In this document: one piece after another, positions 2,223 through 46,082 of the stretch | Layout: each line of letters starts with the position of its first letter | Numbering within the stretch: position 1 is the stretch's first letter | UHGV virus genome: UHGV-1579991 | Direction: 5' to 3' (one strand) | DNA length: 64,000 bases | Source of the DNA: a virus | Program-made: the position numbers and the translations under genes | Notes under the pieces: generated by a model | The model's input: only the letters and a program-made list of their open reading frames with translations | What the model was told of the DNA's origin: nothing | The model's database searches: none

Positions 2223-2281
2223 TATAAAATATTGAGATATTCAATATATGTACATATAATACGAATATTCAAATTAAACAT

Positions 2282-4273
2282 ATGTCTGAAGTTAAGCATC
2301 AAGTATATGACCCTGTAGCACAATTCAAATCTGCAGAAGAAAAGGAAGCTGCAAGAGTCGTGTGGTGTTCAGAAAGTGTGCGTCGTGCATATGCAGCAGT
2401 TGACCAAGGCCTGCCATTACGGTCGAATCCCTGGTTCTTTGGCAATATTGCATTGCGTAAGCCAGGACTATTGTATAGATACTCTGACGTAGAGCTACGT
2501 GAATGGCTTAGATGTGCTTATGATATACTGTACTTTGCCAACACATACGCTACACTCATGACACCTGCAGGTGTGCGAATGCATATTACGTTGCGACCAT
2601 ATCAGAAAAAAATGCTTCGTGCGTATCAAAAGCAAAAGTACATTATAAGTTTGTGTGGACGACAAATAGGCAAAACTACGACTGCTGCAATTTTCCTCGC
2701 TTGGGCTGTCATTTTCAATCGTGAGCTCAACATAGCAGTACTTGGCGACCGCTTGGCTACATCAAGTGAAAACCTGAACAAAACAAAAGACATCATAAAC
2801 AATCTGCCATTCTTTATGAAGCCTGGTGTGTTTGTTTGGAATGGTGGAATGGTCGCATTTGACAATGGCTGCAAAATTATCACAGGTACTGCTCAAAAGT
2901 CATCACTTGTCGGTAAAACAATTCACATCTTGTATCTTGATGAGCTCGCAATTCCGCCTGCTCAGCAATCAAAGACTCTTGTAGACTATGCATTGCCCAC
3001 AATTGCATCATTGCCAACTGGCAAAGTTATCGTAACATCTACGCCATCTGGTGATAATGTGTTCAAGACTTTGTGGCTTGGTGCAATTAACAAAACAAAT
3101 GGATTCTTTCCAATTCAAGTAAACTGGTGGGACATTCCAGGTCGTGATGAAAAGTGGAAAGCTGAACAAATTGCAATTCTTGGTGAAGATGCTTTCAATG
3201 AGCAATACAACTGCGTGTTCTTGTCAGGTGCAACGTCAATTTTCAATTCAAGAGCAATTGATGATATTGCAAGACGACAACAAAAGTATGAATTTGTTGC
3301 TGATGAGCGTCTTGAATCGCTGCTCAGATTTTTCATTGCTGATTCAGATGTTGGCACTGAACCTGAGCCGCATTCATTTATGACTTGGCGTGCAGATATT
3401 GACCCAGCGACACTCAAAAATGAAACATGTATCATCAACATCGACATCGCTGAAGGCTTATCTGGCGACTTTTCTGTCATACATGTGCATCGTATAGTTG
3501 ACATTGCAAAAGATGCTGAACTTGAACTTGATGCAAGCAATCTGTATGATATGTTTGACGATGACAAAAAATCATTGTTTGCAAAAGCAGTTGAAATGCA
3601 ACGTCAAATGTCGGCAACACAAGCTCAAGATGATGACGATGATGACGATGACGACTGGTTTGGCGCAGACGATGATGTTGCTCAAGGAGTCGATGCATAT
3701 CAAGATTATGCGAATGCTGCAGTAGAAGAGATTGGCTTGTGGCGCTCAAATGTGACGTCAATTAAAGTCATGGCTCTGTATTTGCAGTTCTTAATGACAT
3801 ATGTGTTTGACGCAAACAAAACAAAGATTATCTATGAACGCAACAAATATGGTGGAGAGTTTCGTTCATATTGTTTGTCTGAACGTGCACGCAATATTGC
3901 AATTGATGAAGAGAGCTTCGTAAGCTTCCAACGAACTCTTGGTTCAGAACAACTTGCACCAGGCTGTTCAATTACGCCTGGCACCAAACCAGTGTACGTA
4001 AGACAGCTCAAAGACCTTATTGAAACTGGCAAGATTCTTGAAAACAATGCAGATACGCAAAGAGAGCTTACATACTTTGGCGGTGTCAAAGGCAAGAATG
4101 GTCATGTGTCATATCAGGCATCACCAGGCTTCCATGATGACATTGCAATGACTCTTGTATCTCTTGCAGCATTTATGGACACTCGATGCAACGATTGGCT
4201 TGAACTGCTTGATGTGTTCTACAATGGCAGCAGTCAAACAAGTTCTGATGATGACGATGATGACTGGATTTGA
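2282..4273 (+). CDS. terL: terminase large subunit
   Basis: 663 aa ORF with Walker A-like P-loop (LCGRQIGKTTTAA) followed by a nuclease-type C-terminal half; contains poly-Asp tracts (DDDDDDDDDW and C-terminal DDDDDDWI). Confidence 0.8.
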   Translation: MSEVKHQVYDPVAQFKSAEEKEAARVVWCSESVRRAYAAVDQGLPLRSNPWFFGNIALRKPGLLYRYSDVELREWLRCAYDILYFANTYATLMTPAGVRMHITLRPYQKKMLRAYQKQKYIISLCGRQIGKTTTAAIFLAWAVIFNRELNIAVLGDRLATSSENLNKTKDIINNLPFFMKPGVFVWNGGMVAFDNGCKIITGTAQKSSLVGKTIHILYLDELAIPPAQQSKTLVDYALPTIASLPTGKVIVTSTPSGDNVFKTLWLGAINKTNGFFPIQVNWWDIPGRDEKWKAEQIAILGEDAFNEQYNCVFLSGATSIFNSRAIDDIARRQQKYEFVADERLESLLRFFIADSDVGTEPEPHSFMTWRADIDPATLKNETCIINIDIAEGLSGDFSVIHVHRIVDIAKDAELELDASNLYDMFDDDKKSLFAKAVEMQRQMSATQAQDDDDDDDDDWFGADDDVAQGVDAYQDYANAAVEEIGLWRSNVTSIKVMALYLQFLMTYVFDANKTKIIYERNKYGGEFRSYCLSERARNIAIDEESFVSFQRTLGSEQLAPGCSITPGTKPVYVRQLKDLIETGKILENNADTQRELTYFGGVKGKNGHVSYQASPGFHDDIAMTLVSLAAFMDTRCNDWLELLDVFYNGSSQTSSDDDDDDWI

Positions 4274-4280
4274 TTTGTGG

Positions 4281-4338
4281 CACATCATCACAAAACAAGC
4301 CAGCAGAATTGTCTGCTGGCTTGTTTTGTGATGATGTG
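4281..4338. terminator. 58-bp perfect palindrome (27-bp arms) between convergent terL and DHFR genes; putative bidirectional terminator
   Basis: cacatcatcacaaaacaagccagcaga / tctgctggcttgttttgtgatgatgtg are exact reverse complements; located between the stop of terL (4273) and the stop of the DHFR gene (4342). Confidence 0.5.
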
Positions 4339-4341
4339 CTG

Positions 4342-4845
4342 TCATCGTTTTCGATGGAAGACTTTGAATTTGTATCGTAACGTTCTGTCATTATCTGTGC
4401 ATGTGTATAGTGCAGACTCAGATTTTTTAGTCCACATTCGCCAATTGACTGCAGGAAATCGAACGTCGCCCTCAACATAATTGTCAATCATCGTCAAGTA
4501 CATTCTGTCTGCATAAATCATTGCTTCTTCAAACAACTTAGAACCGCCGATGATAAACATGTTAGACGCAAATGCAGACTTGCAATATGCTATTGCATTG
4601 GCTAGCGTGCTAAATACGAAATAGTCGCTTGTTGGCTGCAATGTAGAGCTTATAACAATGTTAATTCTGTCAGGCAAGGGTTTGCAATTCATCGACTCAA
4701 AAGTCTTACGACCCATGATGACAATGTGATTCTTTGTGAGTTTCTTGAAGTGCTGCAAGTCATATGGAATATGCCAGGGCAAATCACCATTGCGACCTAT
4801 GACATTGTTATTTGATACTGCTGCTATGATATTGATGTATTGCAT
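4342..4845 (-). CDS. folA: dihydrofolate reductase
   Basis: 167 aa; N-terminal DHFR signature IIAAVSNNNVIGRNGDLPWHIPYDLQHFKKLT...IVIMGRKTFES. Confidence 0.85.
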   Translation of the reverse strand: MQYINIIAAVSNNNVIGRNGDLPWHIPYDLQHFKKLTKNHIVIMGRKTFESMNCKPLPDRINIVISSTLQPTSDYFVFSTLANAIAYCKSAFASNMFIIGGSKLFEEAMIYADRMYLTMIDNYVEGDVRFPAVNWRMWTKKSESALYTCTDNDRTLRYKFKVFHRKR

Positions 4846-15865: not shown

Positions 15866-18800
15866 TCAAAAGCCTCGATTCATCAGTTCATCAGCAAGTC
15901 GTTCAAGTTCAGTAGCAGCTTTTTGTCGCTTGGCTTCTCTTTCTGCTTCAACATCTGCTTTGCTTACTGGCGATTCCAAGTCTTTTGCAGGTGCATCTTC
16001 AATAACAGTCAAATTGTTGTCATCAAACTTGTTGTCAATGTCAACTCGTTTGAATGATATGATGCCTGATGACACCTGAGCTTCTACTTGTTGTTTGTCA
16101 AATACAAGACTACTAATCGTTGATTGCAGTTTTGTAGATGCCAGCAATCGTTCTGTGTTATCTGCAAAAATGTCATCAGTAAACAATACATGCAGCATTT
16201 GAGCAATCGAATCACGACTTCTGCTGTAGCCACTGTCAAATGCAGGCAACTGCTTAATTGCATAGATGTCGCCATCATGTACAGTAATTGCATTGAACAT
16301 GCGTCTTGCAATTGATGCCACCGAATCAAGTACATCTGGTGATTGCGGCGTGTAGCCTCGTGAATCAAAGTATATGAGTGCAGAGTTCTTAACAATTTGA
16401 TCGACTACTTCTGATGCAATTGAGACTGCATCTTTGCTGTTATTGAAGACATCATTTAGCATATATGACACAATCTTGATGTTCGACTCATGCATTGTGC
16501 CACTTGAGCCAGCATCAAATATTGACACTGCGTCTTTGATTGATTTGAGTCTTGCAAGTCGATACATGTCTTTGTTATCAATGACATACATATCGATAGT
16601 CTTCATAATTGTGTCGAACAAGTAATGATGCGATAGTGTTCGCAATGCATGTCGCCAATCATCAAATACTCGTCTGTCTTCTACAAGATATGCAAGCTTG
16701 CCATTTTTCTTGACAAGTTCAAATCTGTCTGATTCTTGAATTTGCTCTGCCGGCAAATTCATGATGACTTCGAATGTAGCCTGATTGACAAATGATGCAA
16801 ACATTTTGCCAATCTTGCTGTTCTTTTCTTGACGGTACTCTGCTCGAGCTTCTTTTGCAGCATTGAGAACTTGAGCAATCATCATGTCATCTGCAACAAC
16901 ATCTTGCACGACTTTGCATTCATAGCCATACGATGACAATGTGTTCTGAATGATGACAAGCTGAGTAGCCCATTGTCGCCATTTCTGCTCAAACATATTG
17001 AGCTTATACGCAGTCAAGTGAATCTTGATTTCACCTGTGTACGGGTCACGATAAAAGTACGGTGCATTGAATGCCCATTCAAAGAAATCAAAGAGACTTC
17101 TTGAGTCATTGCGCTTTGTCTGCATTTGCAAAATGTCCCAGAATGTCAACTTTTCAACATTTGTTAATGTCAAGTCAAGCTCATCATATGCAGTGATGTT
17201 TCGTGGGTCACCATTCGCTTTTGTCATACTGAAATACACATATGACTGAATGGATATTTTGCGAAGTCGTGAGTTGAACTGCTCAATTTCTTGACCAGTG
17301 AATGCCTCGTCATAAATGACATCGAATTCGTAGCTGTCATTGATATCAATGCCAACTGACAAGTAATTTGTGCAGAATAGCAGTTCAATATCACCGATTG
17401 TGCCAGATTCATTGATTGATTGAACAAAGTCATGCATTGCATTGTCACGCTTGTAGTACTTGACTTTTGGATTTCTGCCAAGCATCATTCGAACTGCACC
17501 AACAATTGCATGAGTAAATGCATCGCCTTTGTTTGTTGGGAACAGAATTCGTTTGCCTGCTTTAATTGCTGTTGAGATATGTGATGCAAGTTTTGTAATC
17601 TTGTCGCCGTCATGTTTGCAGCAGACAAATCTGACACCTTTGTTGTAATTAAGTGGCTTATCGCAGAATACGACAGTATCAAAATGACAGAACATGTGTT
17701 CAGCTACAGGTGTGCCTGTCATCAAAATGACTTTTGTCTGTAACTTTGTTAAGTTGTCAATCACATTTGCAGGTACAACATCACGATATGCAGACATTGT
17801 CAACAAGTGCGACTCGTCGACGACGACGTAGTCATATAAAATTGACACTTCCTCTGGGTCAGCTAATGTAAATTTATCGAATGTCAAAGCTACATTGACA
17901 TGCTTAGACAATTCAAGACCACGCTGACCAAATGAGCAATACATGCCAAGGTCTGACATCTCAATCTTTGATTGCAAGATTGATGTGTATGGTTCAATCA
18001 GCATGACTCGTTTTCCATCACGAGTAAGCTGTTTGATGAATTCTGTCTTGCCTGAACCTGGTCGTGCAATCAAATAGTTGATGCCAGTTACAAATGCTTC
18101 TTCAAGTTCATGCTTGTATGTCGACAAATACTCATTTTCTGCAAGTTTGAAGACATGCGTATGTCGAAGTTCAAAGTCTTTTTGCTGTGCAACTTTCGAC
18201 ATAATGTATTGACTGATTGCGTCTTCTGTATTGTGTTCAGCAATCAGTTCATTGACAGTTACAGACGACTTGTTAGCAAACTTGAATTTGAAGCCATGTT
18301 TTTCACGAAGTTCTTTGACAGATGACCATACACATGGACAAGTGCCTGCTGCATTACGTTCAACTGCAGACCTGAATGAGTTTGCCCAGCTGTTATGCTC
18401 TGCATTGAACTTTGGATTGCCCGAACACATTTGCAAGAACATTTGCAACACATGTTGATATTGTGCAGAAGTCGTTGATTGCAAATCATATAAAAATGCT
18501 AAAGTATATGCAAGTCTGTATCTACCAGTGTTATCGTAGTTTTGTGGAGTGATTGTGAGCATTGTGCCCTCTTCAATCATTGTGATGTCGTCACGTTGAG
18601 TAAAGACTTGCTCGCCGTCAGTCATTGCAGTCATATGAGACTTCGGTGCATAATCAAAACGACCACGAAGTCTATCAAACATTGTCTTCAGTTTGTCGAT
18701 GCAGAATTTTGCATCAACTGAAGCATAAATGCTAACATCAAACTCTGGTTGCTCAATGAATTGCGCGTTTTGATTGATGATGACATCTTTATCTCGTGCA

Positions 18801-19465
18801 ACAAATAGTGGCTGACTAATTTTGCAAACAGACGCATCAACTACTCGAGATTCAGACATTTGACCTGACTTTTCAAGTCGTCTTGACAATGTATTGTTGA
18901 CAGGATGCACTTCTCGAGCCATGTCATGATTGCCCTCTGATTCAAGCTGGTCACTCAGCAACACAAGGCATTTCCAAATGACATACAGTTTTGCCTCATA
19001 TGCATCAAGATATACTTTCTTTGCTGCAGAAGCATTTTCAGATGACACAAATACAGCATCTTCAGTTTGAATTGACAGAGGCTTTGAGATTGTATAGACG
19101 TGCAAGCCTGAACCAGAAGTCGACTTAAGCACAGCAACACACCACGGATATTTGCAAAGCATTGCAGCCAAACGTGGTTTAATGACTTCTACAAGTTCTT
19201 TTGAGTGAAAGTCCAAATCGACTGGCTGTAAGCCTGACCAAGTCAAGTAGTCATGAACTTGTTGTTTTGGTCGAGCAAACATTGTCGATTGCGACACAAA
19301 GGGACGATGCGCTTTATCTACTGTGTCAAGTGACTCATCATTTGCAACTTTCATGATGAGGTCATACAATGAAATTTGTTGCTTATTGACAGTGTCTTCT
19401 GTTTTACGAACACTGTCGCCCATCATGAACTTTATGCCACTGAGCAAATCTTTGACGTTTGACAT
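15866..19465 (-). CDS. putative DNA helicase (DExH box; possibly primase-helicase)
   Basis: Track ORF 15866..19561; start moved to ATG at 19465 (MSNVKDLLSG) to avoid overlap with the upstream gene. Walker A ARPGSGKTEF, Walker B/DExH VVVDESHLLT. Confidence 0.6.
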   Translation of the reverse strand: MSNVKDLLSGIKFMMGDSVRKTEDTVNKQQISLYDLIMKVANDESLDTVDKAHRPFVSQSTMFARPKQQVHDYLTWSGLQPVDLDFHSKELVEVIKPRLAAMLCKYPWCVAVLKSTSGSGLHVYTISKPLSIQTEDAVFVSSENASAAKKVYLDAYEAKLYVIWKCLVLLSDQLESEGNHDMAREVHPVNNTLSRRLEKSGQMSESRVVDASVCKISQPLFVARDKDVIINQNAQFIEQPEFDVSIYASVDAKFCIDKLKTMFDRLRGRFDYAPKSHMTAMTDGEQVFTQRDDITMIEEGTMLTITPQNYDNTGRYRLAYTLAFLYDLQSTTSAQYQHVLQMFLQMCSGNPKFNAEHNSWANSFRSAVERNAAGTCPCVWSSVKELREKHGFKFKFANKSSVTVNELIAEHNTEDAISQYIMSKVAQQKDFELRHTHVFKLAENEYLSTYKHELEEAFVTGINYLIARPGSGKTEFIKQLTRDGKRVMLIEPYTSILQSKIEMSDLGMYCSFGQRGLELSKHVNVALTFDKFTLADPEEVSILYDYVVVDESHLLTMSAYRDVVPANVIDNLTKLQTKVILMTGTPVAEHMFCHFDTVVFCDKPLNYNKGVRFVCCKHDGDKITKLASHISTAIKAGKRILFPTNKGDAFTHAIVGAVRMMLGRNPKVKYYKRDNAMHDFVQSINESGTIGDIELLFCTNYLSVGIDINDSYEFDVIYDEAFTGQEIEQFNSRLRKISIQSYVYFSMTKANGDPRNITAYDELDLTLTNVEKLTFWDILQMQTKRNDSRSLFDFFEWAFNAPYFYRDPYTGEIKIHLTAYKLNMFEQKWRQWATQLVIIQNTLSSYGYECKVVQDVVADDMMIAQVLNAAKEARAEYRQEKNSKIGKMFASFVNQATFEVIMNLPAEQIQESDRFELVKKNGKLAYLVEDRRVFDDWRHALRTLSHHYLFDTIMKTIDMYVIDNKDMYRLARLKSIKDAVSIFDAGSSGTMHESNIKIVSYMLNDVFNNSKDAVSIASEVVDQIVKNSALIYFDSRGYTPQSPDVLDSVASIARRMFNAITVHDGDIYAIKQLPAFDSGYSRSRDSIAQMLHVLFTDDIFADNTERLLASTKLQSTISSLVFDKQQVEAQVSSGIISFKRVDIDNKFDDNNLTVIEDAPAKDLESPVSKADVEAEREAKRQKAATELERLADELMNRGF

Positions 19466-19532
19466 ATTTTGTTGATGCTTTTGTTTGGTCAAAATTATAT
19501 TGAATATGATACAACACTTGTGACATTTTTGC

Positions 19533-20174
19533 TTAGAATGCGACACCGACATGTGCGCCAATCATAGCAGCTTTTGAGTCAACTTGCTTCATGCAGCCAG
19601 CATCAATACCGACACGCCATTGTAAACTACCTTTGCCAAATTGACGAGTGTATGACAGCCAATACATGTCAATTGATTGCTTGTCAAATGTGCCAAATGC
19701 ATAATGAAAGTCTACATTATTTCGTGGCGCATCATGGTCAATGACTTTAATTGTCGTAGTTTGCACTTCACGAATGACTGTGTCTGCTTTGAACATCAAA
19801 ACGTCCCAATCACGTTGCTTAATTGCGTTTTGTGTGACATAGTCTTTTATTGCTATTTGCAGTTTGTCTGACTTCAATGTGTCTGCGTACTCATATTGTG
19901 CAAAGTAGTCATTAACATAATGCATAAGCTTTGTTGTGTCAATGTCAACTACAAGAGTCGTGTCACAATACACTGGCACTGGTATTGTCTTGCCAGGTAT
20001 ATGAACTGTGTCGTGTTTAATGAATGTGTCAACTTTGACAATTGGCTCTGCATTTATAGCATCTTGATATGTTTGCCAGTCTTTTGGGCTGACAAAATGC
20101 CAATCTTTGAAAATCATGACAGCAGTCAATACAATGACTGCTGTCATGACTATGATTTTGAGTGTCTTCAACAT
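19533..20174 (-). CDS. hypothetical protein with N-terminal transmembrane segment
   Basis: 213 aa; N-terminus IIVMTAVIVLTAVMIF. Confidence 0.45.
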   Translation of the reverse strand: MLKTLKIIVMTAVIVLTAVMIFKDWHFVSPKDWQTYQDAINAEPIVKVDTFIKHDTVHIPGKTIPVPVYCDTTLVVDIDTTKLMHYVNDYFAQYEYADTLKSDKLQIAIKDYVTQNAIKQRDWDVLMFKADTVIREVQTTTIKVIDHDAPRNNVDFHYAFGTFDKQSIDMYWLSYTRQFGKGSLQWRVGIDAGCMKQVDSKAAMIGAHVGVAF

Positions 20175-25900: not shown

Positions 25901-26437
25901 TCATTTGTAGTGTTCAGTTATGTATGCAGAGCATAGCAAAACAACTGATACACAAATGACAATGTATGTTGGCGTAATCAGTGTCACATTGAATAACAAT
26001 GCAGTCAATGCGCATACTGTTACTGATATGAGTGTTGAAATGAATGCAGCATATGCACTAAACTTGCTTTTTAACAAACGTTCGATGATATATGTTGTCG
26101 CAACAGACAGTAAGACTACACATGCAAATAACAACAGCCAAGTTGAGTTTGACGTTGTCGGCTCTTCAATAAACTGCAATGTTGCTGATGGCACTTCAAT
26201 ATTGTTTGATGCTTGTAATGTGCCACTTGCAGCATCTGCGTACATCACAGTTAAGTAGTGTCGTTGAATTTCTGCTGCGTCTACTTTATAGATTCTATGC
26301 CATGCAACATCTGATATGATGTATGTTGCAGCCATAAATGCAGCAATGCATAGCATATAAGAGCCAAACTTTGCAATCGGTTTCATGCAAATATATTTTT
26401 GTTTGTATATGTACATAAAAGAGCAAGTTCTCCACAT
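25901..26437 (-). CDS. hypothetical multi-pass membrane protein
   Basis: 178 aa with several hydrophobic stretches. Confidence 0.45.
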   Translation of the reverse strand: MWRTCSFMYIYKQKYICMKPIAKFGSYMLCIAAFMAATYIISDVAWHRIYKVDAAEIQRHYLTVMYADAASGTLQASNNIEVPSATLQFIEEPTTSNSTWLLLFACVVLLSVATTYIIERLLKSKFSAYAAFISTLISVTVCALTALLFNVTLITPTYIVICVSVVLLCSAYITEHYK

Positions 26438-26764
26438 TGAGAACTTGCTCAGCTGACCTGTTACCAGGTGAAAGCGTGGTGCAGCACCTTGTGCTGCAAT
26501 GGCTATGCTGCCATCGCCATAACGGGCTGAGCATTGCCCAGCATCATTACACGACCAGCTGCATTAAGCGTACGCTTTGCTTTGTTGAAAAATTTGCCAG
26601 TTATCTGGTATCTGCACATCTATTCAAGCGACCTACTATGCAATCAAATGCCTGTCGAGCCCAATGTTTGAGCAGTTGTTTGTCAGATGCTCAGCTGACT
26701 GCAGTCTTTCTGAGTGTATCAAGTTCAGCGATTCTGCATCTTTGCTAAATGGCAATGGTTCAGG

Positions 26765-26800
26765 TGGACTCGCCGAGAATCGAACTCGGGTCTTACATAG
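26765..26800 (-). other. tRNA-like fragment (T-arm plus acceptor 3' strand only)
   Basis: Minus-strand read CCGAG-TTCGATT-CTCGG-CGAGTCC-A is a canonical T-arm plus acceptor 3' strand, but I could not find a matching 5' acceptor strand, D-arm or anticodon arm before the next tRNA. Confidence 0.3.
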
Positions 26801-26845
26801 CGCATCCTTGACTTGGTCCTGTAAACAGGGTTGTCAACATGCATT

Positions 26846-26916
26846 GCAATACGACAGGACTCGAACCTGCGACCTCGGATTGGACGTCCGCGCTCTTACC
26901 GCTGAGCTACGTATTC
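26846..26916 (-). tRNA. tRNA, anticodon uncertain (possibly Gly-UCC)
   Basis: Minus strand: acceptor GAATACG/CGTATTG (G1-G72 mismatch), D-arm GCTC-AGCGGTAA-GAGC, T-arm GCAGG-TTCGAGT-CCTGT; anticodon stem irregular (4 bp), loop CGTCCAA. Confidence 0.5.
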
Positions 26917-27009
26917 TTATCAATTGACTGCACTGCAATGCAATCAATCGTGCCAATGATATTTGACACGCATAATTGCAGTTATGCGTAACAATTCAAA
27001 TGTCATTTG

Positions 27010-27082
27010 AGCCAACTGCAGGAATCGAACCTGTAACCTGCTGAGTACAAATCAGCTGCTCTACCAATTGAGCTAAGTTGGC
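27010..27082 (-). tRNA. tRNA-Thr (anticodon UGU)
   Basis: Minus strand: acceptor GCCAACT/AGTTGGC, D-arm GCTC-AATTGGTA-GAGC, anticodon stem GCTGA/TCAGC with loop TTTGTAC, T-loop TTCGATT. Confidence 0.75.
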
Positions 27083-27164
27083 ATAAAGTCGTTGGGCCAT
27101 TGCAACCCAAACCTATCATCTTTGCCTAACCAAAGATGCAAGCGCTCTCTTACACCACGACTTG

Positions 27165-27235
27165 TAGCCGAACTTGGAGTCGAACCAAGCTTTCGAGAAT
27201 GAAAATCTCGCGTCCTAACCGATAGACGAAACGGC
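27165..27235 (-). tRNA. tRNA-Glu (anticodon UUC), non-canonical acceptor stem
   Basis: Minus strand: D-arm GTCT-ATCGGTTA-GGAC, anticodon stem CGAGA/TCTCG loop TTTTCAT, T-arm CTTGG-TTCGACT-CCAAG; acceptor GGCCGTT/TTCGGCT has two U-U mismatches at its base. Confidence 0.5.
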
Positions 27236-27419
27236 CAAGAGCAGTTCAAGTCTGCAGCATTGAACTGCGGAAACAATGCCTGTACGGGCAACCAATTGTG
27301 CAGATACAGCGACATTGCAAAATCACACCGAACCAAGTTTGTGGCTCTTCTGTCTCATAAAAACAAGTAATCATTACACTTGGCACCAATGATTTTGATG
27401 TAAAAATCGGTGTGTTACG

Positions 27420-27504
27420 CGGAGAGTAAGGGATTCGAACCCCTGGTACGTTGCCGTACAGTGGTTTTCAAGACCACCGCCATCGACCGCTCGGCCAACT
27501 CTCC
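27420..27504 (-). tRNA. tRNA-Ser (anticodon UGA), type II
   Basis: Minus strand: acceptor GGAGAGT/ACTCTCC, anticodon stem GTGGT/ACCAC loop CTTGAAA, 16-nt variable arm, T-arm AGGGG-TTCGAAT-CCCTT. Confidence 0.75.
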
Positions 27505-27697
27505 ATAAAACATTGCATAAGCATTCTTATCTCTTGATGAGGCCAAGTAGCTAATTTGGCAAGTTTGTTATATCTATCGTGACTGTTGCAGTTTGTTGTC
27601 ACTCAATACACAAAACTTTCGAACATTCATTGACAACACTGCAATATCGCTTTTTAAGCTCAGCCATCAATGTATTTATGCAATGTATAACAATTCG

Positions 27698-27779
27698 TAG
27701 CCAAACCGGGACTTGAACCCAGACTCCTAATGGAACAACATTTTGAGTGTTGCGTGTCTACCAATTCCACCATTTGGCC
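27698..27779 (-). tRNA. tRNA-Leu (anticodon CAA), type II
   Basis: Minus strand: acceptor GGCCAAA/TTTGGCT, anticodon stem CAACA/TGTTG loop CTCAAAA, 13-nt variable arm, T-arm CTGGG-TTCAAGT-CCCGG. Confidence 0.7.
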
Positions 27780-27876
27780 ATTTGCAAATGCAAGCTGTTT
27801 CACAACTGTTTGCATTTGCATTTGCATTGTTTAACACACTAAAATATGATTCATCTAATCAAAAACCAGAGAATTG

Positions 27877-27949
27877 TCGAGAATGTGCGATTTGAACGCC
27901 AATTATACGTCCCAAACGTATCGTGTTACCGGATTACACTACATTCTCG
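27877..27949 (-). tRNA. tRNA-Pro (anticodon UGG)
   Basis: Minus strand: acceptor CGAGAAT/ATTCTCG, anticodon stem ATACG/CGTAT loop TTTGGGA, T-loop TTCAAAT with a weak 3-bp T-stem. Confidence 0.6.
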
Positions 27950-27956
27950 TTAATTG

Positions 27957-28027
27957 TTGAACTGTCTGGACTCGAACCAGAAATATATCATCCAAAGTGA
28001 TATGTGTTACCATTACACCACAGCTCA
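27957..28027 (-). tRNA. tRNA-Gln (anticodon UUG)
   Basis: Minus strand: acceptor TGAGCTG/CAGTTCA (one G-U), D-arm GTG-TAATGGTAA-CAC, anticodon stem TATCA/TGATA loop CTTTGGA, T-arm TCTGG-TTCGAGT-CCAGA. Confidence 0.7.
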
Positions 28028-36132: not shown

Positions 36133-39100
36133 TTAGAACAGAGCAATGATGTTGTCGACAAACATAAAGCATGCATGCAGCAATTCAGCTGTCGGCGTCA
36201 TCTCATATGCTTTGCCATCATACATGAATCGCACAGTGACAATTGGTGATACTTCGTCTTTGAATGCAAGCACTGGAATGTCTACGCCTGCAGTCAATTG
36301 CACTTCAACGTCCTTGTCAGCTGCTGCATCTTTAGCAATCACTGCGATATCTCGACAACGACCAGCAGCTACTGCATACCGAACATTTGTCAATGCTGCA
36401 GACATATCAACAAGAGCTTGCATAATTTGCTGTTGAGTAAATTGCTCGACTGACTTCTTTGCAGCCTTGACTGCTTCGATATCTTGCGTATTTGCAAGAA
36501 TCAATGCTACCACTGCAGGGTCAGAAGTAGTCCACCAACGGCCATCAATTGCAAGCCACAGTCGATTGCCATTGACGTCAATTGCATATGCATATTGAGT
36601 GTTTGGTGCCAATGTGACTTTTCGAGTGTTCTTTAAGAACTCTGCTGCATCAGGAGCTGCAACAATGTTCTTGACAAATGACGGCAGCATTTCAGCTTCA
36701 AATGTTTGTGTAGCTTCAAAGACACCGCCACGTGCATCGTCATCAATTCTGCCTGCAAAGCGTTTGCAGATTTGAATGATTGTAGCCATGCCTACTGTTG
36801 GAACGACTTGACGTTTCATTGCAGGCATTTGCAGAGGCATTGTATCTTGTGCAATGTACAATGATGCAACATCAACTGTGTCAAGTACTCGTACAATGTC
36901 AGCAGCGTCAACAATTACAAACCAGTCACCATCATGACAAACAATCAGTTGCTTGCTATCATTTGCGAATGTTAACAGCACTGCAACGTCATTTTTGATT
37001 GATATTGCAGGAATCCATGCTTGTTGCAGAGGTAAGTCAAGATTTGGTGTGCCGCATGGATAAAGCGCAGATGGCTGCATAATTGAGCGGCAATCAAAAC
37101 CTATTGAACTTACAAGCTGCAGAACTTCGCCACGAATGCAAGCATTACTTTGATTCTGTGTCATATCATATGCAAGCCAACTGCAAATTGCTTTGATTGA
37201 TGACACTGGAAATGCTATGCCAATTGTGCTGTATGCAATCTTGCCGTCTGCTGACAATGACTCATCAACTGCAATGCCAGCATCATTGAACAATGACATA
37301 TCAATTGAACAATGGAATTCGCCACCAGGCATTGGACCTGCAGCAATACCATAGCCAGGACCAAGTGACAGCCATTCTTTCATTGCATCTGAATTGTATG
37401 ACGAGAACTTGTACAACACATATGACTTATGCGGGTCACTAACTGACTTGCGAATCTCCATCTTGGCGCCTGCTTTCTTTGCAATTGCTTTGATGTTGTC
37501 AGCATGCTTCTTTGCCTCAGACTTGTCAAATTTGCCTTCATCAAGTTGAGCAATCTTGCCAAGCGCATAAGCAGTCCATGCAATTGACAATTGATTCAGT
37601 GCACCAACTTCTGACCACGACTTTTCTGCAAACCATGAGCCAAGACCAGATTTGTCAAGAGTTGCTTTGCGTTCAGCTTTTGTTGCAGCATCCCACCACT
37701 TGCCTGTTGCAGGCAACACAATGTCTTTGATTTGCTCCTTGCGAAGCTCATTGACGCCAATTTTGCCCTCATGAATATGCGCATTTGCATGATATGCTCT
37801 AAGAGCAGCCAATGCAGCATCATATGAGTCATAGTCTTGCGGCCAGAATTCCCCATTCTTGCCAATGATGCCCCATACGCCCTTTGACTTTTCTTGGATG
37901 ACAGAGTCTTTGTCACCAGCAGCTTCATTGACAAATGCAGTGTTAAGATATGCAATGACATGCTGAAGCTCTTTGTCGTCTGCAGACTCATTGACGTTCT
38001 TAGCGTAATCACCAAGAATTGATTCAACTTTGCCACGTAAATTGCTTGGCATATCATCAAGGTCAAGATTGCCATACTTCGTGACTTCTGGTTGAGACAA
38101 TCCAAGCAATTTCAACACCTTATCACGGTACTTGTTTGCGAGCTTCTTCCAAATCCAGCGGAATGTTACAGCGCCAATCAAGAATTTGATGAGGCCCTCA
38201 TCAAGTACATGTTGTTCACGCAAATATGCTGTAATGCATGAACGTTGACCATCAGTTAAGTCAACCCACATTTTATCAAGCAGTATTGAATCTGGGTTGC
38301 TTGCAATGCCAGCGCCACTGCGGTTGTACACATTCATTCTGTCAATTGCTGGTGTTGCGTCATTGTCCCACCAAGCTTGCGCATATGAACATCCAGCAGG
38401 ATTTGAGATTGCCTCATCAATGTACATGACATTGAAAATTTCGCAAAGACGCTTGCGACATTCAGGTGACATAACTTGCCATTGTGTTGCAATTTTGTCT
38501 TCTGACCACTGCAACAGCATGTCTGCAAATTCTTTACCTGCACATTGCTCAACTGCGCCATGTTTCGAACGCCAATAATTGTCAGGCTCAATCTGCGCAA
38601 TTGCATGAACAAATGAAGTCAGATTGTATGACGCAGATTCGCAAATGCAATGCTGTTCAATGTAGCTACGAACAGCAAGTGCAGTGTCTTCCGGCAAGTT
38701 GCTATATGGTGACTCATAGATGTTTGCTTGCTGATTGAGCATATGTGGAGCGACTTCTGCAATGATTTGTTTGCGAACATTCAATGGCCATGCATTCCAC
38801 GAAGATTCCACAGATTCATCAAGATGCATACCAATTGCATCCATAACTGCATCAGCATCTTTGCCCGACAGTTCGTCAAACAATTTGTCTACTACTGCAG
38901 CGTCATATCGCAAATTTGGCTGAGCTTTTGCAAGAGCATCCATCATTGCTTTGCGTTCTTGTTTTGACGCATTGTTCCATGTGCCAGCATACAATTCTGC
39001 TGTCGCGCTTTCACAAACAATATCTGCAGTAGCATATGCTTGCTTCATAATGTCCATGAAGATTGACTTCATTTTTGGATGCATCACATGATACTTTTCA

Positions 39101-39339
39101 TTGTAAATGTCAAGTGTGCCATAGACATCTTTCAATGGTCTAATGCTTTCTGATGAGCCGAATGATGGCTTCAAAATTGAATTGCATACACGTTCAACGG
39201 TGCCACGCATAAACTTGACATCACTTCGCTTGTCACTGATAGACATAAATGCATCAATGACAGACTTGATGGTGTCATCTGCGGCTTCATTAACAAAGCC
39301 TACTGGTCGACCGCCAAACTTGTTTGTTTGTGTTGTCAT
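36133..39339 (-). CDS. large hypothetical protein (1068 aa)
   Basis: Long uninterrupted minus-strand ORF; no polymerase, ATPase or other catalytic motif recognised by eye. Confidence 0.55.
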   Translation of the reverse strand: MTTQTNKFGGRPVGFVNEAADDTIKSVIDAFMSISDKRSDVKFMRGTVERVCNSILKPSFGSSESIRPLKDVYGTLDIYNEKYHVMHPKMKSIFMDIMKQAYATADIVCESATAELYAGTWNNASKQERKAMMDALAKAQPNLRYDAAVVDKLFDELSGKDADAVMDAIGMHLDESVESSWNAWPLNVRKQIIAEVAPHMLNQQANIYESPYSNLPEDTALAVRSYIEQHCICESASYNLTSFVHAIAQIEPDNYWRSKHGAVEQCAGKEFADMLLQWSEDKIATQWQVMSPECRKRLCEIFNVMYIDEAISNPAGCSYAQAWWDNDATPAIDRMNVYNRSGAGIASNPDSILLDKMWVDLTDGQRSCITAYLREQHVLDEGLIKFLIGAVTFRWIWKKLANKYRDKVLKLLGLSQPEVTKYGNLDLDDMPSNLRGKVESILGDYAKNVNESADDKELQHVIAYLNTAFVNEAAGDKDSVIQEKSKGVWGIIGKNGEFWPQDYDSYDAALAALRAYHANAHIHEGKIGVNELRKEQIKDIVLPATGKWWDAATKAERKATLDKSGLGSWFAEKSWSEVGALNQLSIAWTAYALGKIAQLDEGKFDKSEAKKHADNIKAIAKKAGAKMEIRKSVSDPHKSYVLYKFSSYNSDAMKEWLSLGPGYGIAAGPMPGGEFHCSIDMSLFNDAGIAVDESLSADGKIAYSTIGIAFPVSSIKAICSWLAYDMTQNQSNACIRGEVLQLVSSIGFDCRSIMQPSALYPCGTPNLDLPLQQAWIPAISIKNDVAVLLTFANDSKQLIVCHDGDWFVIVDAADIVRVLDTVDVASLYIAQDTMPLQMPAMKRQVVPTVGMATIIQICKRFAGRIDDDARGGVFEATQTFEAEMLPSFVKNIVAAPDAAEFLKNTRKVTLAPNTQYAYAIDVNGNRLWLAIDGRWWTTSDPAVVALILANTQDIEAVKAAKKSVEQFTQQQIMQALVDMSAALTNVRYAVAAGRCRDIAVIAKDAAADKDVEVQLTAGVDIPVLAFKDEVSPIVTVRFMYDGKAYEMTPTAELLHACFMFVDNIIALF

Positions 39340-39452: not shown

Positions 39453-42400
39453 TCAATTACATGCTGAATGTCCGCAGTTGGTGCATCGAACACAGCCGTC
39501 AAACTTGACCATGTCACCACCGCATTCAGGACACTTTGCATACATCTTTGAGCCATCTTGAATGTGTAGTTTCAATGCGCGACCAATTGCTTTGCAGAAT
39601 GTGCCAACAGATGCAAAGCTTTTTGCAGTTTGGTCGACAATTTCACCAAGGTCGATGCCATTGCGAAGCATCGTTGAGTACAGTCGAGTAATTGTTTGCT
39701 GCTCATCTGAACCAAGACGTTCTGAGATATTGTCATAGTGTTGCAAGAATGACAAATTATCACCAAGCTTGTAGTGCTTCTTATCAGTCTTTGTGATTGT
39801 CGTTTGTTCAATGCCTTGCAACTTGTCAAATTCGTCTTTGTCAAGTTCAAATGCAAAGATTTCATAGGGTCGACCATCATCACAACCTACAAGAATACAC
39901 CACTTACGCTTATACACTGATACACAATACACTGCAGCAGGCAATACAGGTTTTCGTTTTGAGCGATGACCAGACTGCAAGACATGCGACTTATCCTTAG
40001 ACTGCTTATCATCTTTTACGAGAACACCTGCACGTGAGCCATCTCGATAAATTGTGCAACCCTTGCAGCCAGATTTCCATGCAGTCAGATAAATTTCACG
40101 AACAAGCTCTTTTGTTGCAGAGTTTGGAATATTGACTGTTACAGAAATTGATGAGTCAATGTACTTTTGCAACGCGCCTTGCAGTTTAACCTTGCCAATC
40201 CAGTCAACATCTTCAGTAGTTGCCTTATAGTATGGTGATTGAACAAGCAATTCATCAATGACTGCTTGCGAAGCATTTGACAACCAAGCTTTGATACGAG
40301 ACATTTCTGCTTCTGACCATTCAATGCCAGTATCTTTGACAAGGGTGAATTTGTCATCACCAAGCTGCACTCGTTTGCAAATCCACTGCATCAATGGGTA
40401 GTGAACTACAGCGTATTCAATGAACTTGTCACCAGTAGTCTCATCAATGAAGTTGATGTCTGCTTCATTATCAACTGCAGTAGGCTTTCGACGACGTTTG
40501 TGCAGTGGCATAAAAACAGGTTCAATGCCAGAAGTTGTCTGAGTCATCAAAGCTGTGGTGCCAGTTGGCGCAATTGTTGTTGTGTTGATGTTTCGACGAC
40601 CAAATTGTTGATAAGTTGTGATGTGCTCATCATCAATCAGTTCAGATAACATACGCTGAATGAACTTTGACTGCACATCTGTGTCATAGTCGAATATTGC
40701 AAATGAGCCACGAATCTCTGCCAAGTCAATTGACGCTTCATAAGTCGCCTTTACAAGCCATTGTTGCATAGTGACTGCGAAGTCAATTGACTCTTGTGAA
40801 CCATAGCGCAAGCCAAGCATTGCCATTGCATCGCCAAGTGCAAGAAAGCCCATGCCATATCGACGAGTATTTGTCAATTTGTCATAGACTTTATGCCACA
40901 AGTCAAGCTCAGTTTTCTTAATGTCAAATGATTCTTTGTCTGATTCAACCTTTGCAATGATTCGTTGAACTGCTTCAATTTCAAGCTGCACAAGGTCATC
41001 CATGATGACTGCACAGTCATATGTATCTTTGTAGAATGCTTCAAAGTCAAATGATGCATCAGCAGTCCAAGGATTAAGCACATATGCAGTCAAATTGCGA
41101 TGTGATAAAATGCAGCTTGCATATGCTGCAAGAGGCTGTTCACCGCACTGCCTGTTGTTTACAAATACTTGCATATGTCTGTCATTTGTATCATTGACAG
41201 CGTCAAATGACCCTACAAAAAAGTTGTGATAATCATCTACAGTGCCATTATACACATCTTCTACACCATCAAGTTCAACAGTGTGTACCCTATGATTGTA
41301 GTAATCTGCAAACTGCTTAAACTTTCTGTATGACGCATGAATAGCAGCGTCAACATTGTTAGATTTGCATTCATTTGCAAATTCTTCATAATTTGGTCGT
41401 TTGCCAAGTTTTTGCTTTGCTGCAGTATATACAAGCACTTGTTCTTTAGACCATTTTGCTTGCTGAGCTGCGTGGCCGCATTCGGCAGAACAATATGCAA
41501 CTTCTCTATAAAACCAGTGCGCCCAAAATTCAGAGCCGCAATGTTCGCAAATACGTTTAACATACACTTGTTTGTCAACAAATTTAGTGTCATAGCCCAT
41601 ATTGCGAACTTTAATTGCTGTTGCTATGCATCTGCTATCAATGCCAACTAAATCAGGATATTTAACATTAGCGCGCGTTGCACAATGACTTAAAAATGCA
41701 TCAATAGAGCCAAATGTTTCTACTAATTTATTGTACCTGTAGCCAGACCATGCAACAGTATTATTGCCTGGCGCATAGCGCATATAGTATTCTAATTCTT
41801 TGCGACTAAGGCCTCTTCCAACTTTTGCAGTGCATTGCGTAACATAGTCTACAATTGATTGCACAGTTGTATCAATATCATATCTGCCATTACGTTCACC
41901 AGAAGTAGATGCACTCATTTTAGCAGAATACTGTGCAAAACGTTCTGCATTTGCTTTAATTTTGTATATTGGATTGTTAGTGCCTCTACGTTCAAGTGCA
42001 TGTAATGCATCATGCTCTTTTTTGCTTAGTACTTGTAAGTTATTTGGGTCATTGTTTAATGAATTGCCATCGATATGATGCACTACTGTGTGTGTAGCAT
42101 CAAACTGTTCAGCATGACAGTATTCTGCTATTAAACGATGCTCAAACTTATATACACCATTATTCAACACTGCATAATATGGTGCAGATTTGCTATTTGT
42201 TTGATAGCTAAGCACTTCATCAAATGAACATTGTTGTCTTGCAATAATTGCTAAGCTATCACCATGCTGTAATTGTCGTGCTTCTTTGTATGTGCCATCT
42301 GTTAACTTAAACTTGTGATTACCTGTGCAACGAATAACATCACCAGAATCAAGTGTAACTTTGTATATTTGCACATTTGAGCCTGTTTTGCGTGGATGCC

Positions 42401-43439
42401 GCATTTTGCGTACAACTACATTATTGTTGTCATCATAGCAATACACATTAACATCATCGCCAATATCTGCAAGTTCACGTATTGTCATTGTTTGTCTGCC
42501 ATCAGCAAGCATAACTTTAGTGCTGCCAACAATGCATGGATTTGTTGAGCGCTCTTCATACATTTTACCGTATGCTTTCGAGTTCGACTCTTCCATAATG
42601 CGGTCCCAAAAGAACACGCCGGGTTCTGCAGATGCCCATACATTGTCAACAATTTTGTCAAATAATGCTTTTGCATCTGATGTCTTATGCAGCTCTTGGC
42701 CATCAGAGCCACGCCAAATATGTTCAAACTGCTGTTCTGCAAGCACTGCACGCATAAATGCATCAGTAAGCTTGATGGAAATGTTTGCACCTGTGATTTT
42801 TGTCAAGTCTTTTTTTGCGTCAATGAACTTATCTGCATCAGGATGCTCAATTGACAATGACAACATCAATGCGCCACGCCTGCCATTTTGTGCAACTTCT
42901 TTTGTCGATGTTGAAAAGCGTTCCATAAATGACACGACACCAGACGTCGTAATAGCACTGTTATGTACTTCTACGCCTTCTGGGCGAATATGCGACAAAT
43001 CATGGCCAACACCACCACGACGTTTCATCAACTGAACTTGCTCTTCATCTGTTTTGAAGATGCCGCCATATGAATCTGCATCATTGCCTATTACATAGCA
43101 ATTTGACATTGATGTGTAACCGCCAAGACCGATACCAGCCATTGGAGAACCACCAAGTACAAATCGCTTAAATGGCTCAAGCAAATATGCAAGTCGCTCT
43201 TTTGACAATACACGTTTGCCTGTCTGTTCTTCAAATTGTGATTCTATACGGTCAAATTCATTGACCCAGCGCTCATGCATATCAGACAATGAGTGTTCAT
43301 ACAAATTGTCTTTGTCATGATGCAAGTATTTTGACATGCATATGTCAGCAGCCATTGAGTCGCCCGTAAATTCATGCGTCAGTGTAGTGTGCACTTCAGC
43401 ATATTCAGGCGACCCAATTTGAATGGGACGTTTTGTCAT
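39453..43439 (-). CDS. nrdJ: ribonucleotide reductase, class II (NrdJ)-like, intein-containing precursor
   Basis: Track ORF 39453..43499; likely start at ATG 43439 (MTKRPIQIG). Exteins reconstitute the RNR active-site motif NP-CGEQPL...AYASC; C-terminal Cys-rich zinc-ribbon-like tail. Class assignment is tentative. Confidence 0.7.
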   Translation of the reverse strand: MTKRPIQIGSPEYAEVHTTLTHEFTGDSMAADICMSKYLHHDKDNLYEHSLSDMHERWVNEFDRIESQFEEQTGKRVLSKERLAYLLEPFKRFVLGGSPMAGIGLGGYTSMSNCYVIGNDADSYGGIFKTDEEQVQLMKRRGGVGHDLSHIRPEGVEVHNSAITTSGVVSFMERFSTSTKEVAQNGRRGALMLSLSIEHPDADKFIDAKKDLTKITGANISIKLTDAFMRAVLAEQQFEHIWRGSDGQELHKTSDAKALFDKIVDNVWASAEPGVFFWDRIMEESNSKAYGKMYEERSTNPCIVGSTKVMLADGRQTMTIRELADIGDDVNVYCYDDNNNVVVRKMRHPRKTGSNVQIYKVTLDSGDVIRCTGNHKFKLTDGTYKEARQLQHGDSLAIIARQQCSFDEVLSYQTNSKSAPYYAVLNNGVYKFEHRLIAEYCHAEQFDATHTVVHHIDGNSLNNDPNNLQVLSKKEHDALHALERRGTNNPIYKIKANAERFAQYSAKMSASTSGERNGRYDIDTTVQSIVDYVTQCTAKVGRGLSRKELEYYMRYAPGNNTVAWSGYRYNKLVETFGSIDAFLSHCATRANVKYPDLVGIDSRCIATAIKVRNMGYDTKFVDKQVYVKRICEHCGSEFWAHWFYREVAYCSAECGHAAQQAKWSKEQVLVYTAAKQKLGKRPNYEEFANECKSNNVDAAIHASYRKFKQFADYYNHRVHTVELDGVEDVYNGTVDDYHNFFVGSFDAVNDTNDRHMQVFVNNRQCGEQPLAAYASCILSHRNLTAYVLNPWTADASFDFEAFYKDTYDCAVIMDDLVQLEIEAVQRIIAKVESDKESFDIKKTELDLWHKVYDKLTNTRRYGMGFLALGDAMAMLGLRYGSQESIDFAVTMQQWLVKATYEASIDLAEIRGSFAIFDYDTDVQSKFIQRMLSELIDDEHITTYQQFGRRNINTTTIAPTGTTALMTQTTSGIEPVFMPLHKRRRKPTAVDNEADINFIDETTGDKFIEYAVVHYPLMQWICKRVQLGDDKFTLVKDTGIEWSEAEMSRIKAWLSNASQAVIDELLVQSPYYKATTEDVDWIGKVKLQGALQKYIDSSISVTVNIPNSATKELVREIYLTAWKSGCKGCTIYRDGSRAGVLVKDDKQSKDKSHVLQSGHRSKRKPVLPAAVYCVSVYKRKWCILVGCDDGRPYEIFAFELDKDEFDKLQGIEQTTITKTDKKHYKLGDNLSFLQHYDNISERLGSDEQQTITRLYSTMLRNGIDLGEIVDQTAKSFASVGTFCKAIGRALKLHIQDGSKMYAKCPECGGDMVKFDGCVRCTNCGHSACN
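41148..42536 (-). mobile_element. intein (Hint domain plus HNH homing-endonuclease domain) inside the RNR gene
   Basis: In-frame 463-aa insertion from Cys at 42536 (CIVGSTKVMLADG) to ...VFVNNRQ at 41148, followed by the +1 Cys of CGEQPL. Contains HNH motif HHIDGNSLNNDPNNLQVLSKKEHDALH and intein block-F-like VYNGTVDDYHNFFVG. Confidence 0.75.
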
Positions 43440-43504
43440 TGTAACAGTGCATTTAAGTGTTTTAACAGTTTTATGTATAAATTGTACAACAATGGGCAAA
43501 ATTT

Positions 43505-44540: not shown

Positions 44541-46082
44541 TTATCTACTTGCAGAATCTCGCATTGAAATCATAACTTGCTCTTGAATTGATATAGGTAT
44601 GATGTTGAAGTCTGACACTTCAGCAACGTCATCAACATCAAGAGCTCTCAATGTATCTGTGTCACAGCAAGTCACAATGATTGACTTGCGAACATACTCA
44701 TCAGCAACATTCCACAGCAGCTGACAAATTGCCCTATTATCAAGACAAATTTCATTGACTGTGCGAACAAGACTATACCATGCAGTCACATTATTGCGCT
44801 TCAGAGTTTCAAGCATATATCGTGCAAGCCCAAAACCTGCTACATATGACCCAGTCTGCTTATTGAATGACTCAATTGCGTATGCATCAAACAATGCTTC
44901 TGTCATCAAAGGCATTGCTGCAGTCATTCTGTAGTATCGATAGTCAACACATACAATCAACCAGTTAACATATGAATTGACTGCATATGCATGTGCCTTG
45001 AAGCCAAGGTCATTCAAGATTGTGCAGATGGCATTGTAAGTCGATTCATCAGCATTGCCAAAGTTTGCAAGCAGCTTAACTTTAAGAATGTCTTCGCCAA
45101 TTGCATTTCTTGTAGCAGTGAATGATGGCATGCATGCAAAGCTTCTTTTGCAGATGTCTGTGATAAGTTGCTGTGCGTCATTTACAAGCTGTCTTGCAGC
45201 TTCAGCACGTTTTTCAGACTGTGCTTGATATTTTGGCCGCAACTGTGATGAGCCAGTTGCAGCGCCATATCGCATAGCAGCTTGCCAGTCCTTGAGATTA
45301 TTTTGCAATTCACGAACATAGTCTGCAGCAACAATTGCAGATGGAGTTCTTTGTTGCTCGATTAGTTTGTTGATGTTTGCAAGCACATCTGATGCAAACA
45401 TATCTTTTGGCTTGACTCTTGCAATTTCAGCAAGCACTGCCGGTACACGAGCAATACCGCGAGGTTCATTTGAAACTACTACTGCATAGTCTACAAGCGC
45501 CTCACATACAAGCTGCTCATCAACAAAGTACTCAGGATTCTGCACAGCATCTTCAACAACTGCAATCAATGTTGCTCTACGATTGCTGTCAGGTTTGTTG
45601 CCAAACAGCTCAATGTACAGCATGTCTGCTTGCTGATCTGTCATTGAACCTGCGATGTCAATTGTCTTTGCAAGTTTGTTAAGCAGTTCAGCTTGCTTAC
45701 TTGACAATCTGACTTTGTATGACGACTCTACGGCTTCTTTGACTGCTTTGAGTTTTCTGTCAATGTCAAGGCTGCTTTCATTGACATTCATGCCGACAAT
45801 GCCTGCAGCATCAGTATTAAATTGCTCAACAGTTTCTGCTGCAGTTATTGGCAATGACACAATAGATTGTTTTGCATTTGCTGCAAGCTGATTGAGTCGA
45901 GTGACTGCTTCAGAATCTTGCGCAACTGCAAGATATCTTACGCACAGCTCATCAATCTGTGAAAGATAACTTTGGGTCATGTTTATTGAAAAATTGTTGT
46001 TTCTTGACGAATAGCTGTTGGATGCAATTTGCGGAAACACTTCGACATTTCTAAGTTCCGATGATGACAACAATGTTTCCAT
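44541..46082 (-). CDS. hypothetical protein
   Basis: 513 aa ORF. Confidence 0.5.
   Translation of the reverse strand: METLLSSSELRNVEVFPQIASNSYSSRNNNFSINMTQSYLSQIDELCVRYLAVAQDSEAVTRLNQLAANAKQSIVSLPITAAETVEQFNTDAAGIVGMNVNESSLDIDRKLKAVKEAVESSYKVRLSSKQAELLNKLAKTIDIAGSMTDQQADMLYIELFGNKPDSNRRATLIAVVEDAVQNPEYFVDEQLVCEALVDYAVVVSNEPRGIARVPAVLAEIARVKPKDMFASDVLANINKLIEQQRTPSAIVAADYVRELQNNLKDWQAAMRYGAATGSSQLRPKYQAQSEKRAEAARQLVNDAQQLITDICKRSFACMPSFTATRNAIGEDILKVKLLANFGNADESTYNAICTILNDLGFKAHAYAVNSYVNWLIVCVDYRYYRMTAAMPLMTEALFDAYAIESFNKQTGSYVAGFGLARYMLETLKRNNVTAWYSLVRTVNEICLDNRAICQLLWNVADEYVRKSIIVTCCDTDTLRALDVDDVAEVSDFNIIPISIQEQVMISMRDSASR

Follow-up and report, generated by a model that had tools for sequence, protein, structure and literature searches.

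A glutamine-ending HNH intein predicted at the thiyl-radical cysteine of a phage class II ribonucleotide reductase

The window analyzed here is a 64,000-nucleotide stretch of the virus genome UHGV-1579991, and its nrdJ gene, which encodes a predicted class II ribonucleotide reductase (RNR), is interrupted in frame by a 463-aa insert that is almost certainly an intein with the junction described below. It is very likely a class-1 intein of an HNH-plus-zinc-finger family, lodged directly N-terminal to the NrdJ thiyl-radical cysteine, and its last residue is Gln where most inteins have Asn. Judged from its sequence motifs and predicted fold, the element is intact and very probably splicing-competent. 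Comparison with related phages indicates that this HNH-bearing intein has spread recently and horizontally through a recombining phage population, and its endonuclease is probably what drove that spread.

The NrdJ host and the anatomy of the insert

The host protein is assigned as an adenosylcobalamin-dependent (class II) RNR, NrdJ, from profile and structural comparisons. With the NCBIfam equivalog TIGR02504 NrdJ_Z (cutoff 399.95), the extein without the 463 residues reaches 468.7 bits, and the match to the Pfam RNR barrel domain extends across the insert on both sides. The spliced extein aligns with the Thermotoga maritima NrdJ structure 1xje at E = 4e-50, with the catalytic Cys, the Glu and the partner cysteines conserved, and there is no gap over the site, where 'stnpCgEqpLaayasC' of the extein faces 'stnpCgEigLsdyeaC' of 1xje. 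It follows from this gap-free alignment that Cys+1 is the thiyl-radical Cys of NPCGE and that the unspliced precursor must be catalytically incompetent. The C-extein carries a C-terminal Cys-rich tail, CPECGG...CTNCGHSAC, and the best NrdJ matches are found in uncultured huge phages and crAss-like phages (36-44%). The length of 1348 aa given in the original prediction is correct for the open reading frame (ORF) at 39453..43499 (-) counted from the TTG at 43499, but on public contigs of identical sequence the gene callers start at the ATG at 43439, so that the length should be 1328 aa. The same 1328-aa product is encoded in the independent assemblies Logan ERR1136811 and ENA ERZ27265429, and a variant of it in ERZ1106954.

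That prediction had also placed a 463-aa in-frame insert within this ORF, and its coordinates and sequence proved exact to the base (Table 1). The junction flanks read ...EERSTNP / CIVGSTKVML ... HMQVFVNNRQ / CGEQPLAAY, where slashes mark the splice points; the N-terminal start of the intein is CIVGSTKVMLADG, and its final codon, CAG for Gln463 at 41148..41150, adjoins the TGC of the +1 position. The insert begins with Cys after STNP and divides the motif NP/CGEQPL, as had been claimed, and its removal gives STNPCGEQPL, with the joined intein-less nrdJ site reading ...GAGCGCTCAACAAATCCA / TGCGGTGAACAGCCT.... When checked against 1xje, the junction stands, and the boundaries cannot be moved to a canonical His-Asn.

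The identification as an intein, first made from the sequence alone, is borne out by profile searches, with matches to Pfam Intein_splicing PF14890 (1e-18) and TIGR01445 intein_Nterm (43.7 bits, cutoff 24.5), and by a model with the HINT fold. In this AlphaFold2 model, built from 15 sequences with a mean predicted local distance difference test score of 81, the N- and C-terminal halves are β-rich, and Foldseek returns a probability of 1.0 to the solved splicing domains of Ssp DnaB, Npu DnaE, Mtu RecA, PI-PfuI and the NrdJ-1 split intein, as well as to the Gln-terminal Pab and Pho PolII inteins. Among the viral structures of BFVD, the closest folds belong to inteins of the HNH type that reside in phage terminases, in DNA polymerases and in one RNR. 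Nested between the splicing halves are an HNH core, a helical region and a zinc-finger-like module. The HNH core, also claimed originally, matches HNH_3 (PF13392) at 1.8e-8 in a full-protein Pfam search and at 1.8e-9 with the isolated segment, and its ββα-metal motif, with the catalytic His, Asn and His, is intact (HHIDGN...NNLQVLSKKEHDALH; 37.5 bits on HNH_3, cutoff 24.8); a Pfam search of the zinc-finger and helical parts to E values up to 10 gave just a weak hint of DUF2256 (E 0.4). No other intein was found in the window by tblastn and the family hidden Markov model over all six-frame ORFs.

The features expected of a class-1 intein are largely in place: precise removal restores the host motif, Cys1 and a TxxH motif are present, a cyclizable Gln is followed by Cys+1, and the fold is that of HINT domains. 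Thr71 and His74 of block B are near-invariant in the family, with TxxH in 104 of 110 members. Absent are a penultimate His at G:6 and an Asp at F:4, which are typical assisting residues and not obligatory ones; block F is DVYNGTVDDYHNFF and carries Asn at F:4, a position normally held by Asp (VYNGTV), and block G has Asn at G:5, Arg at G:6 and Gln at G:7. A class 3 assignment, which needs no N-terminal nucleophile but calls for a WCT triplet (Trp in block B, Cys at F:4 and Thr in block G), is ruled out by the presence of Cys1 and by Asn at both F:4 and G:5.

Table 1. Coordinates of the nrdJ precursor, its intein and other features in the window
Feature	Coordinates	Strand	Details
nrdJ precursor gene	39453..43439	(-)	1328 aa from ATG, stop included; Pfam Ribonuc_red_lgC 1.7e-73
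N-extein, 301 aa	42537..43439	(-)	ends ...YEERSTNP; aligns with T. maritima NrdJ up to STNP
Intein, 463 aa, Cys1...Gln463	41148..42536	(-)	ORF residues 322-784 (1348-aa numbering)
N-terminal splicing half, blocks A and B	42225..42536	(-)	Cys1, TxxH motif
Block B Thr71	42324..42326	(-)	
Block B His74	42315..42317	(-)	
HNH nuclease core, intein aa 133-176	42009..42140	(-)	HHIDGNSLNNDPNNLQVLSKKEHD; Pfam HNH_3
CxxC-x16-CxxxC zinc-finger-like module, intein aa 330-353	41478..41549	(-)	CEHCGSEFWAHWFYREVAYCSAEC
C-terminal splicing half	41148..41291	(-)	block F, extended hairpin, block G VFVNNRQ
C-extein, 564 aa plus stop	39453..41147	(-)	first residue Cys+1 (TGC, 41145..41147)
Seven-tRNA cluster	26846-28027	(-)	Gly-TCC, Thr-TGT, Glu-TTC, Ser-TGA, Leu-CAA, Pro-TGG, Gln-TTG

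From this anatomy we infer the splicing chemistry, glutarimide formation and nuclease activity, and we hold the full mechanism, including Gln cyclization, with good confidence. Splicing would begin with an N-S acyl shift at Cys1, aided by Thr71 and His74 of block B, after which attack by Cys+1, the catalytic Cys of NPCGE, would give a branched thioester. Gln463 would then cyclize to a glutarimide, replacing the usual conversion of Asn to succinimide, and free the intein, and an S-N shift would restore ...STNP-CGEQPL... and with it an active NrdJ; the precursor would be inactive until spliced. At the DNA level, the HNH nuclease together with the helical and zinc-finger DNA-binding parts would most likely cut nrdJ alleles that have no intein during co-infection, and repair of the cut allele would copy the intein in, which constitutes homing.

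Allelic inteins and spread among related phages

Two IMG/VR genomes of ~175 kb each (L002 and L003) are sister phages of the window phage, with nrdJ exteins that are 93-96% identical to those of the window in DNA and flanking genes that are ~95.5% identical. At the same codon they carry a different, 208-aa intein of the same family that has no HNH domain. This mini-intein keeps the zinc finger (CECCGKEF...YCCDACA) and terminates in VVNTLN/CGEQPL, with its Asn in the same register as Gln463. Its two copies are 94.2% identical, in exteins that are 94-95% identical, and its GC content is that of the host gene, all of which gives the mini-inteins the look of resident elements passed on vertically.

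The 463-aa Gln intein of the window recurs in a fourth strain, L006 (ERZ1106954), with 3 of 1389 nt differing (99.8% identity), whereas the exteins of this strain depart from those of the window at 40 of 903 nt and at 74 of 1073 nt (Fisher p = 3e-23 against the intein). Mismatches restart 16 nt from the junction on the upstream side and 21 nt from it on the downstream side, and beside the junctions no co-conversion tracts are detectable past 16-21 nt. The L006 exteins are no closer to those of the window than to those of the mini-intein strains. In base composition the intein has 37.5% GC (25.7% at third codon positions, GC3), against 42-43% in the exteins (GC3 36-37%). Because the intein is 99.8% identical within exteins that are 93-96% identical, has a foreign GC3 and sits in an L006 backbone at these distances, the data indicate recent horizontal spread, and of the two allelic inteins only the HNH-bearing one shows the marks of it. 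The suggestion of a mobile element, originally a guess, is now backed by this comparison of strains.

The extein changes between the window and L006 are overwhelmingly synonymous, with synonymous to non-synonymous ratios of 39:1 in the N-extein and 58:16 in the C-extein. This pattern shows purifying selection on the exteins, so that nrdJ is in use and under selection and the intein has to be removed. Within the intein, all three differences alter the protein (S to G, E to K and S to I, at intein nt 328, 544 and 623, counted from 1) and none is synonymous, but so few changes allow no interpretation.

The spread is explained most economically by homing, for which passive recombination is the main alternative. 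On the latter account the intein is capable of splicing but has a non-functional HNH domain, and ordinary homologous recombination in co-infection carried the 99.8%-identical copy between strains. Several observations lend this account weight at the expense of homing. The exteins are visibly mosaic in the phage population, with informative sites that change strain affinity every few tens of bases, a sign of rampant recombination, and general recombination of this kind could move an intein without a nuclease. The three non-synonymous differences in the intein, with no synonymous ones, would fit a relaxation of constraint in parts of it. In addition, a degenerate pattern over YEERSTNP-CGEQP found no intein-free allele in IMG/VR, and the scan of a single metagenome for such an allele returned just one further intein-bearing strain; the homing target is therefore hypothetical. 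Against a purely passive transfer stand the intact HNH motif, which scores above its Pfam cutoff, and the retention of the HNH architecture in at least 84 of 110 family members. Likewise, the HNH-less sister mini-intein shows no comparable excess of identity, and the tract shared by the window and L006 stops within ~20 nt of either junction, and we consider passive spread unlikely, though it is the strongest of the competing explanations. Spread by homing is accordingly the reading we retain for the HNH-bearing intein.

The terminal glutamine and the wider intein family

An exhaustive HMMER search over 1.84 billion cluster representatives (50%-identity clusters) gave 5485 hits, of which roughly 2,300 family members lie at E<1e-10 and 378 at E<1e-30. 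Termini were scored among the best 150 of the 5485 together with 14 word-index hits, and 115 inteins qualified by having a VYNGTVD..HNF block F and a position directly before CGE. The terminal residue of these is Gln in 71 and Asn in 44, with no other residue found. The residue before it is always L, R or K, with no case of His, and 83 of the 115 have Asn at position -4. The predicted Gln end without a penultimate His, encoded by a CAG directly before the TGC, is confirmed, but its description as a rare, slower-splicing variant does not hold, since Gln is the majority ending among the scored members and the literature is split on speed. Inteins ending in Gln or Asp have been documented (PMC4031507; PMC549080), as have functional inteins with no penultimate His (PMC4031507). 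With Gln, splicing is slow in the PolII inteins Pab and Mma, and in the Pyrococcus PolII inteins it improves with Asn (PMC4031507), whereas in the RNR intein of Chilo iridescent virus (CIV) the native Gln supports better splicing than Asn does (PMC4031507; PMC549080). Slowness therefore cannot be inferred for the window intein.

The catalytic set is nevertheless atypical, which weighs against splicing competence: the block G model TIGR01443 gives no score on the intein, the penultimate His is missing and Asn occupies F:4. Other inteins elsewhere in the same multi-intein proteins have the canonical VYDLTV...HN followed by S or C, which shows that the atypical residues are a property of this family and not an alignment artifact. 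It might still be supposed that Gln at G:7, Arg at G:6 and Asn at F:4 leave the intein splicing-dead and nrdJ a pseudogene or the source of a non-catalytic protein, and some Gln inteins are indeed slow (PMC4031507). We find this very improbable. Cys1, TxxH and Cys+1 are all present, the CIV RNR intein does splice with Gln (PMC4031507), and a terminus that is solely Gln or Asn across 115 diverged members argues for selection for a cyclizable residue. The pseudogene version in particular is rejected on the 1328-codon frame, which is unbroken in four assemblies, and on the purifying selection seen in the exteins.

A mis-assigned junction, in which the intein would end at the Asn of VFVNN and RQ would belong to the extein, has in its favor a resemblance to the hydrophobic-x-N pattern of canonical block G. 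It would place Arg, a non-nucleophile, at +1 and would yield NP-RQ-CGE inside an invariant active-site motif, and it is refuted by the alignment with 1xje, which is gap-free only with all 463 residues removed, and by the family register, in which the terminal N or Q lies directly before CGE; we give it hardly any credence. A sequencing or assembly artifact joining two separate genes, for which no supporting evidence was found, is refuted by the identical protein in the independent Logan and ENA assemblies and by the 99.8%-identical intein on a diverged backbone in a third metagenome, and is the least credible of all.

Q- and N-enders of the family have the same architecture, with a zinc finger in 88 of 110 members and a strict HNH motif in 84 of 110. 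They differ at position -3, where Asn is found in 52 of the 71 Q-enders versus 8 of the 44 N-enders and where 28 of the 44 N-enders have Thr or Ser, a covariation between -1 and -3 with a Fisher value of 9e-9 that is not corrected for phylogeny; the window (NNRQ) and its sister phages (NTLN) both follow this rule. On a crude neighbor-joining tree of 150-aa splicing domains, which is poorly resolved, parsimony counts 30 Q/N switches versus ~34 for shuffled labels, which hints that the two states may be interspersed, with ~30 switches between them. Nearest neighbors agree in their Q/N state in 80 of 110 cases, indicating some phylogenetic signal, and each switch between Gln and Asn takes two base changes, by way of His or Lys. 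Taken over the family, terminal Gln is an alternative to Asn, and not an error or a defect. More tentatively, the family at this RNR site may represent a distinct class-1 catalytic sub-type that prefers glutamine cyclization for C-terminal cleavage, and not a degraded chemistry, with a signature of Asn at F:4, no His at G:6, an extended F-G hairpin, Asn at -4, and Gln co-varying with Asn at -3. The Gln and Asn alleles in near-identical exteins form a natural matched pair for the tuning of the active site to Gln or Asn. As a separate observation, the zinc-finger-like module is kept in the sister mini-intein, which has neither the HNH domain nor the helical regions, and this and its frequency in the family suggest that it does not serve the nuclease alone but has a function connected with the splicing domain or with the binding of DNA or exteins.

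Known systems, genome context and significance

Gln-terminal inteins (including one in a viral RNR), HNH inteins and the NrdJ insertion site have all been published already, and the thiyl-radical Cys site is the most frequent intein site in RNRs (PMC2677866). What is new here is the mini-intein allele in two sister phages and the 99.8%-identical intein in a fourth strain. A close comparator by its literature traits is the 'glutamine-type' CIV RIR1 intein of Chilo iridescent virus IIV-6 (ORF 085L), which shares the Gln terminus and a viral RNR host with the window intein, although that virus is eukaryotic and its RNR belongs to class I. Related iridoviruses have allelic mini-inteins (PMC1635734), which parallel the pair of full-length and mini-intein alleles in the window phage and its sisters. 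The PolII inteins of Pyrococcus abyssi and P. horikoshii are solved class-1 inteins that end in Gln (Foldseek matches 2lcj and 5bkh), although these are archaeal mini-inteins of DNA polymerase II with no HNH domain, and their sequences are unrelated to that of the window intein beyond the HINT fold. The NrdJ-1 split intein (structure 8ubs) matches the window intein in fold and has its site one residue downstream, a position at which one member of the present family (P0008; NPC/C...Q/SEQ) is also found, again ending in Gln. Both NrdJ-1 and NrdA-2 differ in being split, in having free-standing nucleases of the GIY-YIG or Vsr-like type and in ending in the canonical HN, whereas the window intein is contiguous with an in-frame HNH domain. 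In-frame HNH inteins have been known since 1997 (Dalgaard et al. 1997) and are considered uncommon (bioRxiv 10.1101/2025.01.02.630785). Those of the actinobacteriophage survey (bioRxiv 10.1101/2025.01.02.630785) have the same HNH-in-HINT build and likewise occur in phages; unlike HNH inteins reported as rare, the window family comprises 378 clusters at 50% identity (E<1e-30), and it has an extra zinc-finger module and a terminal Gln or Asn with no penultimate His.

Interrupted nrdJ genes also occur in other phages. In a 462-kb uncultured phage (L001, LR756500.1), nrdJ at 471-4642 is a 'fractured gene': its N-part ends in ...TAAPTG/CLEKDAII, the latter being an N-intein, and is followed by a free-standing 376-aa ORF and by a third ORF that begins with a C-intein, ...YYILDNGIVSHN / TVSLMTQTTSGIEP, while its NP/CGE site is empty (STNPCGEIAL). 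This looks like the arrangement of a split intein and a free endonuclease described by Dassa et al. 2009, at another NrdJ site. In the Bacteroides crAss-like phages PhiCrAssBcn14-18, nrdJ matches as two pieces over ~3.7 kb versus 2.5 kb and is annotated as two RNR genes; for the insertion of ~1.15 kb, an intron, an intein and a free nuclease are candidates.

The window itself is part of a large (~175 kb) myovirus with T4-like modules, and its genes include a Terminase_6N, a Gp23-type capsid protein, topoisomerase II subunits, an NAD-dependent ligase and seven tRNAs. Close cultured relatives are lacking: a megablast of the gene against 50,697 phage records gave no match, and the best terminase match is to Chryseobacterium phage MA9V-1 (41%). 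Beside the tRNA cluster, ARAGORN calls a permuted transfer-messenger RNA (tmRNA) at 26412-26854 (-); Rfam at its gathering threshold finds the seven tRNAs and no tmRNA family, and the call is probably a false positive. Three very large ORFs, at 36133-39339 (-; 1068 aa), 44541-46082 (-; 513 aa) and 15866-19561 (-; 1231 aa), have no Pfam or PHROG match; those of 1068 and 513 aa lie immediately on either side of the nrdJ region, and the sister phages conserve both.

As a single locus, the window intein is an ordinary, if tidy, example of known intein types. Its wider interest comes from its relatives: Gln is the majority ending in a very large and mostly uncharacterized metagenomic family, and this terminus should not be taken as a defect when phage RNRs are annotated. 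The presence in one phage population, at the same codon, of a full-length allele with HNH and Gln and a mini allele with Asn and no HNH offers a compact natural illustration of the homing cycle. The Q/N pair, together with the covariation at -3, opens an experimental route to what lets some inteins use Gln efficiently, and an understanding of this could help in engineering inteins with tuned rates of C-terminal cleavage.

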